Assembly: GCF_013122565.1 (NCBI RefSeq)
Contig: NZ_CP053258.1
DNA from: Escherichia coli
GTDB lineage: Bacteria; Pseudomonadota; Gammaproteobacteria; Enterobacterales; Enterobacteriaceae
Direction: 5' to 3' (one strand)
Length of the DNA: 64,000 bases
The notes under the pieces are model-generated. The model saw nothing but the letters and a program-made list of their open reading frames with translations, did not search any database and was not told the DNA's origin. How positions within the stretch are numbered: the first letter of the stretch is position 1; each line of letters starts with the position of its first letter. Both the position numbers and the translations under genes were made by a program. Shown here piece after piece: positions 25,684-56,227 of this stretch.

Positions 25684-27399
25684 TTACTTCAGCGGCGAAC
25701 GGTTACGATCAATGCCGTAGCGTTCGATCTCTTTATACGGCACGGTTTTTGACTGGCGCTTGCGCACATCAACCAGCGTCACACGGTCGGTACAGGAGTA
25801 GCAGGGATCAAGGCTACCGATAATCAGCGGTGCGTCAGAAACGGTATTGCCGCGTAGCATGTAACGCAGCACCGGCCAGTTGGCGTAGGTGGCGGCACGA
25901 CAGCGCCAGCGGAACAATTTTTGGTTATCACCGAGCATGCTCCAGTGCACGTCTTCACCGCGTGGCGCTTCAACAAAGCCGAGCGCGAATGCGTGAGGTT
26001 TATAGCTAAAGCCTTCGGTCAGCAGCGGGGTATCCGGCATGTTGTCGAGGGCAAATTCCAGCATTGCCAGCGAATCAAACGTCTCTTTGACACGGACCAT
26101 CACGCGGGAGAAGACATCGCCGCCGGTAAAGGTAAACAATGTTTTTGGAATATTGCCGTAGTCGGCGTAGGGGTGATCAAAGCGCAAATCACGGGCAAAA
26201 CCACTGCCGCGGATCAGCGGTCCTACGGGGCTATAATCACGGGCGATTTGTCGGTCGAGAATGCCAATGCCCTGAGTGCGTTGTTCCATATTCGGCGTGG
26301 CAAGCAGCATTTCTACCAGCTCGGACACGTCGGCGCGCATCTCGCGCACCAGTTTCAGCGTTTGCAGACGTTGCTCTTTGAGAATATCGCGGCGAACACC
26401 ACCAATCAGATTCAGACCGTAGGTTTTACGCGACCCGGTCAGCAATTCCGCCATCGTCATCGACTTTTCCCGCACGCGGAAAAATTGCATAAAGCCGGTA
26501 TCAAATCCAACAAAATGGCAGGAGAGGCCAAGGTTGAGCAAATGACTGTGCAGACGTTCGACTTCCAGCAGAATCGAGCGAATAGTATGCGCTCGTTGCG
26601 GCACCTCAATACCCAGTGCATTTTCAACCGAGTTGGTATAGGCCACACTGTGGGCAAAACCGCAAATCCCACACACGCGGTCCGATAAGAAGGTCACTTC
26701 GTTGTAGCCCATCCGCGTTTCTGCCAGTTTCTCCATGCCGCGATGGACATAAAACAGGCGGTAATCAGCATCGACAATTTGCTCGCCATCCACAAACAAG
26801 CGGAAGTGACCCGGTTCATCGGAGGTGATATGCAGCGGGCCGACAGGGATCACCCGCGCATCGCTGTTGCCCTCATTGATAAACGGATACGTTTCGGTAT
26901 CAGTCGTCGGTTCAGGGCGCAGTCGATAATCCATCGCATCTTTGCGCAGCGGATGCATATCTTCCGGCCAGTCATCGGGCAACACCAGGCGACGCTGATC
27001 AGGCAGGCCAACCGGAATCAGCCCGTACATATCGCGAATTTCTCGCTCGCCCCAGACCGCGGCAGGGACGCGCGGTGTGACTGACGGAAACTCCCGACTG
27101 TCGGCATCGACCAGTGCCTTCACCACGATCCAGCATTTTTCGGCCCCTTCCATTGAAAGGGCATAATAAACCGCGTAATGACCGTTAAGTGTCCGCTCGT
27201 CGTTGCCAAACAGAACCGGAAGCCAGCCATCATGTTGATAATAAAGATAATGTACAACGTCAGGCAGCAGATTGATTTTCACCGTAATGGTAACCTGTTC
27301 AGGCGTTTGTCGCTCTTCATCCAGCACCGCGCCGGGGAACTGCGTTTTCAGGGCGGCGAGAATCGCTTCGCCACGATTTGACGATGAATTAACGTTCAC
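25684..27399 (-). CDS. hyfG: Hydrogenase-4 [NiFe] large subunit (HycE/NuoCD-like)
   Basis: ORF 25684..27444; GTG at 27399 is preceded by GGAGA and gives [14 protein letters not shown]...; N-terminal RxCGxC and C-terminal DPCxSC nickel-ligating motifs. Confidence 0.9.
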
Positions 27400-52316: not shown

Positions 52317-52383
52317 TAGCCTGCGCAGACAAACCCGACTTCACAGCGTAAGATAATTGTTCATTTCGCGCTGTGGAGTCGGT

Positions 52384-52959
52384 ATGACGCAACAAATCAC
52401 CCTCATTAAAGACAAAATTCTCTCCGATAACTATTTCACCCTGCACAACATTACCTACGATCTCACGCGCAAAGATGGCGAAGTTATCCGCCATAAACGT
52501 GAAGTTTACGATCGCGGTAATGGTGCGACGATCCTCCTGTACAACGCGAAGAAAAAGACCGTGGTTCTGATTCGTCAGTTCCGTGTCGCTACCTGGGTTA
52601 ATGGCAATGAAAGCGGGCTGCTGATTGAAACCTGCGCCGGGCTGCTGGATAACGACGAACCGGAAGTGTGCATTCGCAAAGAAGCGATTGAAGAGACGGG
52701 CTATGAAGTGGGCGAAGTGCGCAAATTATTTGAACTGTATATGTCGCCTGGCGGTGTGACTGAGCTAATCCACTTTTTTATCGCCGAATACAGTGACAAT
52801 CAGCGCGCTAACGCCGGTGGCGGTGTCGAAGATGAAGATATTGAAGTGCTCGAGCTGCCGTTCAGCCAGGCGCTGGAGATGATCAAAACCGGCGAGATAC
52901 GTGACGGTAAGACGGTGTTATTGCTTAACTATTTGCAAATGTCACATTTAATGGACTGA
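52384..52959 (+). CDS. nudK: GDP-mannose pyrophosphatase (Nudix hydrolase)
   Basis: ORF trimmed to [20 protein letters not shown]... (191 aa); Nudix box (REAIEETGY). Confidence 0.9.
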
Positions 52960-53084
52960 AAAATAACAATAATATTTCGTTGTTTATTATTGGCTCAATC
53001 CGACAAATCCGATTGAGCCGCGCTACCTGCGCAACGAAGATACGACTTGTGCTGTTTGTTTGAACTTCTGGGGTCGTACCGTCC

Positions 53085-54128
53085 ATGCGCTATCGCATTT
53101 TCCTTCTCTTTTTTTTCGCTTTGTTGCCGACGTCTTTGGTGTGGGCGGCACCAGCGCAACGGGCGTTTTCCGACTGGCAGGTCACCTGTAATAACCAAAA
53201 CTTCTGCGTGGCGCGTAATACGGGCGATCATAATGGACTGGTGATGACCCTGAGCCGCAGCGCCGGGGCGCATACCGATGCCGTTTTACGTATTGAGCGC
53301 GGCGGGTTGAAGTCGCCGGATGCGTCTGAAGGGGAAATTGCGCCACGGCTGCTGTTAGATGGCGAGCCGTTGGCGTTAAGTGGTGACAAGTGGCGGATTT
53401 CACCATGGTTACTAGTAACCGATGATACGGCAACCATCACCGCGTTTTTGCAGCTGATTCAGGAAGGGAAGGCAATCACCTTACGCGATGGCGATCAGAC
53501 CATTTCTCTGAGTGGCTTAAAAGCAGCGTTGTTGTTTATTGATGCTCAGCAAAAGCGCGTTGGCAGTGAAACCGCGTGGATCAAGAAAGGGGACGAACCG
53601 CCGCTCAGCGTACCGCCCGCGCCTGCGCTGAAAGAGGTCGCGGTGGTTAATCCAACGCCGACACCACTCTCACTCGAAGAACGTAACGATTTGCTGGATT
53701 ATGGAAACTGGCGGATGAATGGTCTGCGCTGCTCGCTTGATCCATTGCGTCGAGAGGTGAATGTCACTGCGCTGACTGATGATAAAGCGCTGATGATGAT
53801 TAGCTGTGAGGCAGGGGCCTATAACACCATTGATTTGGCATGGATTGTGTCGCGTAAAAAGCCGCTGGCCTCGCGCCCGGTTCGGTTGCGTTTGCCGTTC
53901 AACAACGGTCAGGAGACGAATGAACTGGAACTGATGAACGCAACATTTGATGAGAAATCGCGTGAGCTGGTGACCTTAGCGAAAGGGCGCGGATTAAGCG
54001 ATTGTGGCATTCAGGCGCGCTGGCGCTTTGACGGTCAGCGTTTTCGCCTGGTGCGTTACGCCGCAGAACCCACCTGCGATAACTGGCATGGGCCAGACGC
54101 CTGGCCCACGCTGTGGATCACCCGTTAA
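53085..54128 (+). CDS. ypfG: Periplasmic DUF1176 protein YpfG
   Basis: 347 aa; signal peptide MRYRIFLLFFFALLPTSLVWA; several Cys residues; function unknown. Confidence 0.85.
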   Translation: MRYRIFLLFFFALLPTSLVWAAPAQRAFSDWQVTCNNQNFCVARNTGDHNGLVMTLSRSAGAHTDAVLRIERGGLKSPDASEGEIAPRLLLDGEPLALSGDKWRISPWLLVTDDTATITAFLQLIQEGKAITLRDGDQTISLSGLKAALLFIDAQQKRVGSETAWIKKGDEPPLSVPPAPALKEVAVVNPTPTPLSLEERNDLLDYGNWRMNGLRCSLDPLRREVNVTALTDDKALMMISCEAGAYNTIDLAWIVSRKKPLASRPVRLRLPFNNGQETNELELMNATFDEKSRELVTLAKGRGLSDCGIQARWRFDGQRFRLVRYAAEPTCDNWHGPDAWPTLWITR

Positions 54129-54146
54129 ACAAAATAGCGGGGACAT

Positions 54147-54216
54147 GTAGACCGGATAAGACGCTGTAGGCCGGATAAGACGCGTCAGCGTCGCATCCGG
54201 CAATCAGCATCCGGCG
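54147..54216. repeat. REP element cluster between ypfG and tktB
   Basis: gtagaccggataagacgctgtaggccggataagacgcgtcagcgtcgcatccggcaatcagcatccggcg. Confidence 0.8.
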
Positions 54217-54223
54217 ATCACCA

Positions 54224-56227
54224 TCAGGCACCTTTCACTCCCAGCACCTTATGCGCTTTTGCCACAATATTCTCGGCGGTAAAGCCAAAGAACGGGAACA
54301 GCTTATCGGCCGGAGCAGATTCCCCGTAACCCGTCATCCCGACAATTGCCCCTTTCAGACCAACATATTTGTACCAGTAATCGGCGATGCCCGCTTCTAC
54401 CGCCACGCGAGCCGCAACGTTAGAAGGCAACACCGACTCCCGATATTCCTCATCCTGGGCGTCGAAAATATCGGTCGAGGGCAGGGAAACCACGCGAACA
54501 TTGCGACCTTCTCCCGCTAATTTCTCCGCCGCTTGCAGGGTGATTTCCATCTCTGAACCGGTGGCAATCAGAATAATATCCGGCTTGCCGCCGCTGTCTT
54601 TCAGCACATAACCGCCACGAGCAATCTCTTTAACCTGATCCGGCGTACGTTCTACCTGTGCCAGATTCTGCCTGGAGAGGATCAGTGCTGTCGGTCCGTT
54701 GTGGCGCTCAACCGCCAGCTTCCAGCCAACCGCCGCTTCCACCTGATCGCACGGTCGCCAGGTGCTGAAATTTGGCGTTAAGCGCAGACTAGCCAGTTGC
54801 TCAACAGCCTGGTGCGTCGGACCATCTTCGCCCAGACCAATTGAGTCGTGGGTATAAACCATAATCTGCCGCGCTTTCATCAGTGCCGCCATCCGCGCTG
54901 CGTTACGGGCGTATTCAACAAACATCAGGAACGTCGCGGTATACGGCACAAAGCCGCCGTGGTGCGCAATGCCGTTGGCGATAGCGGTCATGCCAAATTC
55001 ACGCACCCCGTAGTGAATGTAGTTGCCCGCCGGATCTTCCTTCAGCGAAACAGAACCTTTCCAGATGGTCAGGTTGCTGGGAGCCAGATCCGCCGAACCG
55101 CCGAGCAACTCAGGCAGCATCGGCCCGTAAGCGTTAAGCGTATTTTGCGAAGCCTTACGGGTAGCAATTTTCGCCGGATTTGCCTGTAACTCATTGATAT
55201 ATTTCTGAGTCGTTTTCTCCCAGTCCTTCGGTAAACCACCGCTCATCCGACGGGTAAACTCTTCTGCCAGTTGCGGATGGGCCTTTTTATAGGCGGCAAA
55301 CTTCTCATTCCAGCTCTGCTGCGCTTTTTCGCCTTTTTCGCGGGCATCCCAGGCGTGATAAATCTCTTTAGGGATCTCAAATGGCGGATGGTGCCAGCCC
55401 AGTTTTTGCCGTGCCAGCGCCACTTCTTCTTCCCCCAGCGGTGCGCCGTGCGCCTCTTCCTTACCTGCTTTATTCGGCGAACCAAAGCCAATCACCGTAC
55501 GGCAGATAATCAGCGACGGCTTATCTTTCACGCTTTGCGCTTCAAGGATCGCTTCCTTCACCGCCTGCGGATCGTGACCGTCGATTTCATGGATCACATG
55601 CCAGTGATAGGCTTCAAAACGTTTTGCCGTATCGTCGGTAAACCAGCCTTCGGTTTCTCCATCAATCGAAATACCGTTGTGATCGTAAAAACCAATCAGC
55701 TTGCCCAGTCCCAGCGTGCCCGCCAGCGAACAGACTTCGTGGGAAATACCTTCCATCAGGCAGCCGTCGCCCATAAACACATAGGTGAAGTGATCGACAA
55801 TTTCATGATCTGGCTGGTTAAACTGCGCCGCCAGCGTACGCTCTGCTATCGCCAGCCCGACGGCGTTCGCCAAACCTTGTCCAAGTGGACCGGTGGTGGT
55901 TTCAACACCAGGCGTATAGCCGATTTCCGGGTGGCCTGGGGTTTTTGAATGCAACTGACGGAAGTTCTTCAGTTCTTCCAGCGGCAGGTCGTAACCGGTC
56001 AGATGCAGCAAACTGTAGAGCAGCATCGACGCGTGACCGTTGGAAAGAATAAAGCGGTCGCGATCATACCAGGTTGGGTCGGTAGGATTATGTTTAAGAA
56101 AATCGTTCCACAGCACTTCGGCAATATCAGCCATGCCCATCGGCGCGCCGGGATGACCAGAATTGGCTTTTTGTACCGCATCCATACTGAGTGCGCGAAT
56201 CGCATTGGCAAGGTCTTTTCGGGACAT
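54224..56227 (-). CDS. tktB: Transketolase 2
   Basis: ORF 54224..56290 trimmed to [31 protein letters not shown]... (667 aa). Confidence 0.95.

Follow-up and report, generated by a model that had tools for sequence, protein, structure and literature searches.

The analysed stretch of DNA (the window: 64,000 nucleotides of Escherichia coli, contig NZ_CP053258.1 of assembly GCF_013122565.1) carries, at positions 53085-54128, an open reading frame (ORF) that is ypfG (b2466), an already-known annotated core gene of E. coli. A preliminary description, made from the sequence alone, had placed this 347-aa ORF by itself between nudK and tktB, and its coordinates, strand and ATG start were all found to match. 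The encoded protein is identical to that of K-12 b2466 at 345 of 347 positions (D79E, L124M) and has the same neighbours. The gene indeed stands alone, as tktB is convergent and nudK, which has the same orientation, ends 125 bp upstream, with a separate promoter apparent for ypfG. This conserved core “y-gene” has no assigned function. We lean slightly towards the view that it codes for an exported envelope protein of the Rcs regulon and has its own RcsB-type promoter; this is a composite picture and does not describe a biochemical role. All features are listed in Table 1.

Table 1. Features of the ypfG locus, with positions in the window.
Feature	Position	Strand	Remarks
nudK (GDP-mannose hydrolase, Nudix)	52384..52959	+	Pfam NUDIX match; annotated as nudK in E. 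coli genomes
Inverted repeat (GGCTCAATCCGA / TCCGATTGAGCC), the “hairpin” of the preliminary description	52992..53019	.	12-nt arms 52992-53003 / 53008-53019
RcsB-box-like 14-mer TCCGACAAATCCGA	52999..53012	+	one mismatch to TN(G/A)GAN4TC(T/C)NA; putative RcsB site
Putative -35 hexamer TTGAGC	53013..53018	+	directly abuts the box; little or no variation of TTGAG among 15 lineages
Putative -10 hexamer GAAGAT, part of the invariant block GAAGATAC	53036..53041	+	block conserved across genera; assignment putative
Shine-Dalgarno-like GGGG, 11 nt before the ATG	53070..53073	+	from sequence; CTGGGGTTGTACCGTYCATG conserved in Enterobacteriaceae
ypfG coding sequence	53085..54128	+	ATG start, 347 codons plus stop
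Signal peptide, residues 1-21	53085..53147	+	predicted signal peptidase I cleavage after VWA
N-terminal domain, residues 22-170	53148..53594	+	predicted: beta-rich, helices 115-125 and 145-155, IalB-like fold
Pro-rich interdomain linker, residues 171-195 (EPPLSVPPAPALKEVAVVNPTPTP)	53595..53669	+	model without regular secondary structure at 156-196
C-terminal domain, residues 196-347	53670..54125	+	predicted: one long helix (197-212) plus antiparallel beta-meander
REP cluster between convergent ypfG and tktB	54146..54220	.	two copies of TGTAGRCCGGATAAGACGC and two copies of GCATCCGGCRATCA
tktB (transketolase 2), convergent to ypfG	54224..56227	-	Pfam transketolase domains; K-12 annotation

Of 5426 complete E. 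coli genomes, 5425 gave a megablast match to the region 52900-54300 (with a coverage of 80% or more in 5424), and the gene order nudK / ypfG (as DUF1176 domain-containing protein) / tkt is found in the RefSeq annotation of 5424 of these genomes. The synteny of nudK and ypfG is retained in Salmonella, Citrobacter, Enterobacter and a lineage with only 50% protein identity. The 125-bp spacer between the two genes is 100% identical to that of K-12. Over the full 1.4 kb, the identity to the complete E. coli genomes of the collection does not exceed 98.9%, and the differences fall in the coding region and in the cluster of repetitive extragenic palindromic (REP) sequences.

YpfG is a full-length, high-scoring and in no way divergent member of the Pfam family DUF1176 (PF06674), to which no function is assigned. 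Residues 25-347 match positions 1-322 of the 322-position profile (356.9 bits, with a gathering cut-off of 34.8 bits; E 1.7e-106), so that the family membership given in the preliminary description rests on a whole-profile match. Its statement that no function is known for the family agrees with our full-text literature searches, which gave no functional study of ypfG and no paper on ypfG itself. A homology search for relatedness to a well-characterised enzymatic family turned up none. YpfG is matched by no NCBIfam model, and a PADLOC scan was also without a match. The family is broad: when clustered at 50% identity, its members from Proteobacteria form more than 1500 groups. An exhaustive HMMER search returned 1514 DUF1176 representatives at 50% identity, 821 of which have an E-value of 1e-10 or better. 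A pattern scan with one genome per species gave 219 relatives, from Lysobacteraceae, Sphingomonadales, Burkholderiales, Caulobacterales, Hyphomicrobiales, Acetobacteraceae and Enterobacterales, and tblastn against plasmids extends the family to Acinetobacter, Vibrio, Pseudomonas and Rhizobium.

Published transcriptomes tie ypfG to the Rcs response, which refines the earlier account. Upon treatment with a LolCDE inhibitor, ypfG is up 37.7-fold and 44.2-fold (PMC5105897). In the table of induced genes it is placed between ypeC and yaiY, near osmB, ycfJ, bdm, wca/wza, mliC, ivy and ymgGD, and this neighbourhood is an Rcs signature (PMC5105897). Disruption of rcsB in an E. coli O157:H7 isolate goes along with a 4.58-fold lower ypfG level (p 9e-9), and ycfJ (-25x) and ypeC (-24x) are also down (PMC5343319). 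The published data point to a partial dependence of ypfG on rcsB. In carbapenem-resistant E. coli, a DUF1176 gene is among three unknowns that are overexpressed in all carbapenem conditions, and ivy and a ymgD-family gene are also up (bioRxiv 10.1101/2019.12.16.878389). In extraintestinal pathogenic E. coli, serum induces ypfG only when complement is active (PMC4145685). During RP4 conjugation, ypfG rises with ypeC in the recipients. All of these conditions disturb the cell envelope, which is the type of stress that is sensed by Rcs (PMC7913699, PMC5105897). Neither of the two main transcriptome papers (PMC5105897, PMC5343319) mentions the upstream gene nudK in its main text or in the tables of induced genes given there. 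ypfG is among the most strongly induced genes upon envelope damage (lipoprotein-transport inhibitors, carbapenems, complement), and we consider it very probable that it is controlled by Rcs.

The hairpin that had been noted upstream of ypfG exists as a stable inverted repeat. Its arms are 92% complementary, and the corresponding RNA has a folding free energy of -15.8 kcal/mol (z -4.3), a stability that none of 200 shuffles reached. It is more likely, however, that the repeat is the activator-site and -35 part of the ypfG promoter, functioning as DNA rather than as an RNA structure. At the core of the repeat is a 14-mer that resembles the RcsB box with one mismatch, for which the consensus TN(G/A)GAN4TC(T/C)NA has been structurally defined in Salmonella (PMC7913699). 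The spacer between nudK and ypfG was aligned for Salmonella, Citrobacter, Enterobacter and the lineage at 50% protein identity, and later for 22 enterobacterial lineages. Conserved in this alignment are only the inner block CAATCCGAyAAATCyGATTGAG and GAAGATAC, and not the outer stem GGCT/AGCC. An element composed of the box, TTGAG, a spacer that is variable in sequence, and GAAGAT(A/G) is conserved in 17 lineages, its carriers being Escherichia, Salmonella, Citrobacter, Enterobacter, Kosakonia, Phytobacter, Cedecea, Pseudescherichia, Franconibacter and two more lineages. The spacer from TTGAG to GAAGAT(A/G) has 17 bp in 14 of the 17. A fixed spacer length with varying sequence is the signature of a -35/-10 promoter pair. 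Within a 32-nt block compared in 15 lineages, columns 10-14, 17, 19-20 and 23-27 are invariant.

For calibration, the K-12 upstream regions of known Rcs genes were scanned for the RcsB box. Exact boxes were found for ivy, ycfJ, ymgG and rprA, where the box spans -49 to -36 relative to the 5' end, and boxes with one mismatch for bdm, ygaC and yaiY. The right half-site (TCTGA/TCCGA) occurs in most of the calibrated Rcs promoters, as it does at ypfG. The ypfG gene shares with rprA, ivy, ycfJ, ymgG and bdm the 14-bp pseudo-palindrome, the right half-site and a strong co-induction in Rcs-activating conditions. In rprA and ypfG, the box ends right at the -35 element. When the ypfG box is placed as in rprA, this sets the -35 hexamer at 53013-53018 and the -10 hexamer at 53036-53041, and transcription would therefore start near 53048. 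The left half-site of ypfG differs, being TCCGA and not TNRGA, so that the site resembles a direct repeat of ATCCGA no less than an inverted repeat. Binding of RcsB is putative. Direct Rcs control through the box at 52999-53012 is, in our judgement, just on the probable side. The specific RcsB-type arrangement of box, -35 and -10 amounts to a directly testable promoter model.

The repeat might instead act as RNA, being either a weak terminator or stabiliser of the nudK transcript or a 5' stem of the ypfG mRNA, but this is unlikely. Its stem is more stable than all 200 shuffles and is located 33 nt past the nudK stop codon. For the mRNA variant, transcription would start at an E. coli-specific promoter-like site (52963-52990), with the ATAACA-16-TATTAT motif ending at 52990, just upstream of the stem. 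However, there is no U-tract: the stem is followed by GCGCTACCTG without a T-run, and a terminator scan is silent at this position. A role as terminator was rejected, given that both a T-run and covariation are lacking. In the 15 lineages, the three outer stem pairs are unpaired in 10-12, and the inner pair 8-25 is broken in 8. Compensatory changes do not exceed those in shuffles, as the covariation score is 0.067 vs 0.054 (81 of 500 shuffles are as high) and paired cells amount to 69% vs 68%. Further points against an RNA function are the invariance of the inner sequence, its fixed distance to the conserved -10-like block, and the lack of conservation of the upstream TATTAT outside of E. coli.

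The AT-rich segment 52963-52990 was called a Fur box in a published study, which would make ypfG a Fur-regulated gene with an iron or siderophore role. We consider this highly improbable. The best match to the 19-bp consensus (GATAATGATAATCATTATC) is 11/19, and 38% of random 151-nt tiles from the window score as well. As this is at background level, a Fur box upstream of ypfG was rejected. The segment is E. coli-specific and not conserved across genera. In the serum study (PMC4145685), ypfG responded only to active complement and not to iron-poor inactivated serum, and a match to XusB is propeller-type background. Besides its promoter-like ATAACA-16-TATTAT, the segment contains an 8-nt inverted repeat (CAATAATA/TATTATTG). 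If transcription starts at this site, the 5' end of the transcript would coincide with the hairpin; other genera do not have the site.

The preliminary description had also reported a signal peptide and several Cys residues, and both are borne out. The N-terminus (MRYRIFLLFFFALLPTSLVWA followed by APAQ) has two basic residues, a hydrophobic run (residues 3-24), V-W-A at (-3,-1) and no lipobox, and the predicted cleavage site is between VWA and AP. The hydrophobic run is the only such stretch in the protein, and there is no further transmembrane segment. With MRYR, IFLLFFFALLPTSLV and VWA preceding the cleavage site, the protein has the make-up of a Sec and signal peptidase I substrate, the call being rule-based and made without a dedicated predictor. 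All orthologue N-termini start with MRYR, followed by a hydrophobic run. The rule-based call agrees with the localisation of tagged Salmonella YpfG at the cell periphery (PMC12487888). Mature YpfG has a size of ca. 36 kDa and a pI of ca. 6. It contains six Cys (35, 41, 216, 241, 307 and 331). Conservation was analyzed in an alignment of 98 full-length DUF1176 members with 25-80% identity, taken from the 1514 representatives, and each Cys is conserved in 96-100% of these. The obvious pairing from the sequence would be 35-41, 216-241 and 307-331. YpfG is very probably periplasmic and disulfide-bonded.

An AlphaFold2 model was computed from the 98-sequence alignment (predicted local distance difference test, 93.0; predicted template modelling score, 0.89). 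It predicts two tightly packed beta-rich domains, an IalB-like N-terminal domain and a family-specific C-terminal domain. The conserved motifs are DWxVxC(D/N)NxxxC and SLxGLxAALLxxDxxQxR in the N-terminal domain and GAYN, (A)KGRGLxDCG and WxFDG in the C-terminal domain. With split hidden Markov models for the N- and C-terminal domain, both domains were detected together in each of the 52 intact genes from the fetched loci. When compared to Bartonella henselae IalB (PF06776, structure 3dtd), YpfG has 18% identity over the aligned residues and an extra C-terminal domain that is not IalB-like. A Foldseek search with the model against the PDB gave no match at E 0.001 or better and did not recover 3dtd. 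PDB searches by sequence (with the protein and with the 98-sequence profile) gave nothing meaningful and did not reach 3dtd either; matches to CEA (E 0.05) and 5xyi (E 0.32) were rejected as noise. A Pfam scan of the two halves of YpfG (22-172, 186-347) at E up to 10 detected DUF1176 only and not IalB, and the Pfam IalB profile is matched by just one of the 98 family members (E 0.02). Since IalB is matched neither by sequence nor by Foldseek, we term the N-terminal domain “IalB-like in fold” and do not place YpfG in the IalB family. A plasmid tblastn search for IalB sequences, intended for a profile-profile comparison, returned only DUF1176 genes. The two-domain model, which is of high confidence, may tie YpfG to the IalB fold, which is equally enigmatic.

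YpfG might be an adhesion or invasion factor like Bartonella IalB, for which we see hardly any chance. The family is common in free-living bacteria from soil and water (Luteimonas, Sphingomonas, Caulobacter), and YpfG has neither an anchor nor a signal for surface export. According to published reports, Bartonella IalB itself resides in the inner membrane and its mechanism is unknown, and RgsG from S. meliloti, which has an IalB domain, is an essential periplasmic protein of the growth zone or growth pole, also of unknown mechanism.

In the picture that we favour, the stand-alone gene ypfG would be transcribed in Enterobacteriaceae from a sigma70 promoter of its own, with the inverted repeat forming the upstream half of this promoter. 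Damage to the envelope (blocked lipoprotein traffic, damage to peptidoglycan by beta-lactams, complement plus lysozyme) would activate the Rcs phosphorelay. Phosphorylated RcsB would bind at 52999-53012 and activate the sigma70 promoter that starts near 53048, raising ypfG 5- to 40-fold, together with ivy, mliC, ymgD, ycfJ and ypeC. The product would be exported by Sec, oxidised by DsbA, and be present in the periplasm as a soluble, disulfide-stabilised protein of ca. 36 kDa. There it may bind or protect a component of the envelope, without being an enzyme. That YpfG is such a non-enzymatic binding or protective protein is a tentative assignment, which we rate as somewhat short of probable.

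One may speculate about a more specific role. YpfG might be a proteinaceous inhibitor of peptidoglycan hydrolases, directed against host lysozymes or against muramidase or amidase effectors of rivals. It would then be a new structural class beside Ivy, MliC/PliC, PliI, PliG and LprI, which Rcs would call up upon a breach of the outer membrane. YpfG and these Rcs-induced lysozyme inhibitors are alike in compartment and E. coli regulon, and they are small, beta-rich and disulfide-containing (the disulfides of YpfG being predicted). The co-regulation with Ivy and MliC, the complement-dependent induction and a single DUF1176-LprI fusion protein (see below) point in the same direction. However, the evidence is circumstantial, the fold scores are at background level, and YpfG fits none of Ivy, PliC/MliC, PliI, PliG and LprI by sequence family or by a clear fold match. 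We consider an inhibitor function improbable. We think equally little of the chances that YpfG and DUF1176 represent a new class of Rcs-deployed periplasmic “guard” proteins, which neutralise peptidoglycan hydrolases or shield the sacculus. The IalB-like domain and the previously unseen beta-domain could then bind lysozymes or the muramidase or amidase effectors of type VI or type IV secretion systems, and the IalB fold would thereby gain a molecular activity for the first time. A protective effect of YpfG on a cell wall under attack would be relevant for antibiotic and serum tolerance; if it is not protective, it is an ordinary uncharacterised member of a stress regulon.

Several observations weigh against the composite picture or parts of it. 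The first group concerns the promoter. The ypfG box deviates from the consensus at a specified position (C instead of the expected R), and this deviation is itself conserved. A box with at most one mismatch is expected by chance ca. 0.28 times per 230 bp (our own arithmetic), and the exact consensus has 0 matches in the 64-kb window, with 1.8 expected. As one-mismatch matches are common, the box alone is not significant, and the case rests on conservation, geometry and expression. The proposed -10 hexamer GAAGAT agrees with the consensus at three of six positions and is not reported by a promoter scan. The orthologues from Erwiniaceae (Mixta, Pantoea, Winslowiella) are devoid of the element and have a different upstream motif in common. 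Reports of a mapped transcription start site of ypfG, or of chromatin immunoprecipitation (ChIP), an electrophoretic mobility shift assay or a footprint for RcsB at ypfG, were not found in the literature searched.

The second group concerns regulation and function. The effect of rcsB on ypfG is possibly indirect, and the LolCDE inhibitor triggers the Cpx and sigmaS responses as well (PMC5105897). Rcs is restricted to the enteric family Enterobacteriaceae (PMC7913699), whereas DUF1176 is common across alpha-, beta- and gamma-proteobacteria that lack Rcs. Therefore, Rcs control would be a lineage-specific overlay on an older periplasmic protein and carries little information about the ancestral function of DUF1176. 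IalB-type proteins are without a known mechanism and thus do not help to understand YpfG mechanistically. Finally, YpfG may be a periplasmic enzyme of an unrecognised class, acting on an envelope substrate. A dozen charged or polar residues (D30, N37, R58, D92, D153, Q156, R158, Y246, K300, R302, D306 and D316) are conserved across the 98 divergent members and are compatible with an active site, which might be formed by the Gly-rich loops (AKGRGLxDCG, GAYN) and the DxxQxR segment. The fixed two-domain architecture and the age and wide distribution of the family also fit an enzyme. We still regard an enzymatic function as rather unlikely.

To analyze the genomic context, ORFs were called in 79 loci of alpha-, beta- and gamma-proteobacterial origin, and all of them were clustered. 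Synteny is found only at the level of orders, with nudK-ypfG-tkt-tal-maeB in Enterobacterales and a gene for a 3-hydroxyacyl-CoA dehydrogenase upstream of DUF1176 in Sphingomonadales. In a Pfam census of 80 flanking genes, no family was seen more than three times. The sole recurring envelope-related neighbour is a gene of the beta-lactamase/penicillin-binding protein family PF00144, found in Mixta, Pantoea, Salmonella and one Sphingomonas (loci L042 5561-6742, L046, L047, L048, L049 2118-3416, L009 793-2091 and L035 824-4476). It adjoins the DUF1176 gene in Mixta and Pantoea and is directly upstream of nudK in Salmonella, while two copies adjoin DUF1176 in Sphingomonas colocasiae. This neighbourhood is a weak hint at a possible link to peptidoglycan.

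A few homologues have additional domains, which are rare architectures in the family. The longer homologue P0243 (L007 6001-7698) has a C-terminal LprI lysozyme-inhibitor domain (23.3 bits, with a cut-off of 22), and a DUF4424 gene is located upstream of this fusion. P0215 has the rare architecture of an N-terminal DUF2127 membrane domain followed by DUF1176, and P0211 is a fused double (tandem) DUF1176. A Sphingorhabdus metagenome-assembled genome (L074) has two tandem DUF1176 genes. The fusion proteins P0011 and P0026 were dismissed as apparent assembly or frame artefacts, and long “DUF1176” ORFs in Xanthomonadales as start-codon artefacts caused by high GC content.

The REP cluster that had been described downstream of ypfG is present, with two plus two repeat copies at 54146-54220. 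It consists of clustered imperfect palindromes, is intergenic and lies between convergent genes; the REP consensus, applied here from general knowledge, comprises palindromes of the GCCGGATAAGRCG / GCATCCGGC type. The cluster folds into nested stems (z about -4.5), is 96% identical to that of K-12 and has a sub-threshold match to the REP-derived Rfam family naRNA4 (38 vs 59.5 bits). In Salmonella, a 76-aa ORF, STM2475 (L009 4173-4403), is located between ypfG and tktB; the corresponding interval in the window (54129-54223) contains the REP cluster. In Salmonella D23580, one transcription start of STM2475 is inside ypfG (PMC6333337).

Some further observations concern the locus itself. An 18-nt inverted repeat with 78% complementarity (53029-53046 / 53073-53090) includes the ATG of ypfG in its downstream arm. 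Translation could be occluded by this repeat only if the transcript begins upstream of ca. 53048, e.g., in nudK read-through. A sigma54-type promoter-like sequence (TGGCAGGTCACCTGTA) is found at 53175-53190, within the ypfG coding sequence, where it coincides with the codons for the conserved motif DWQVTC. The site from the Salmonella orthologue (TGGCAGGTCACCTGCAAT) is bound by the sigma54 holoenzyme according to ChIP-chip (PMC3844500). In E. coli, the -12 element of this intragenic site has GT instead of GC. For nudK, the program-made ORF list has a TTG start at 52357 (200 aa), while the annotated start is the ATG at 52384 (191 aa). The E. coli plasmid NZ_CP195334.1 (50.9 kb) contains, at 25780-26348, a partial DUF1176-tkt-xapB piece of the chromosomal region around ypfG.

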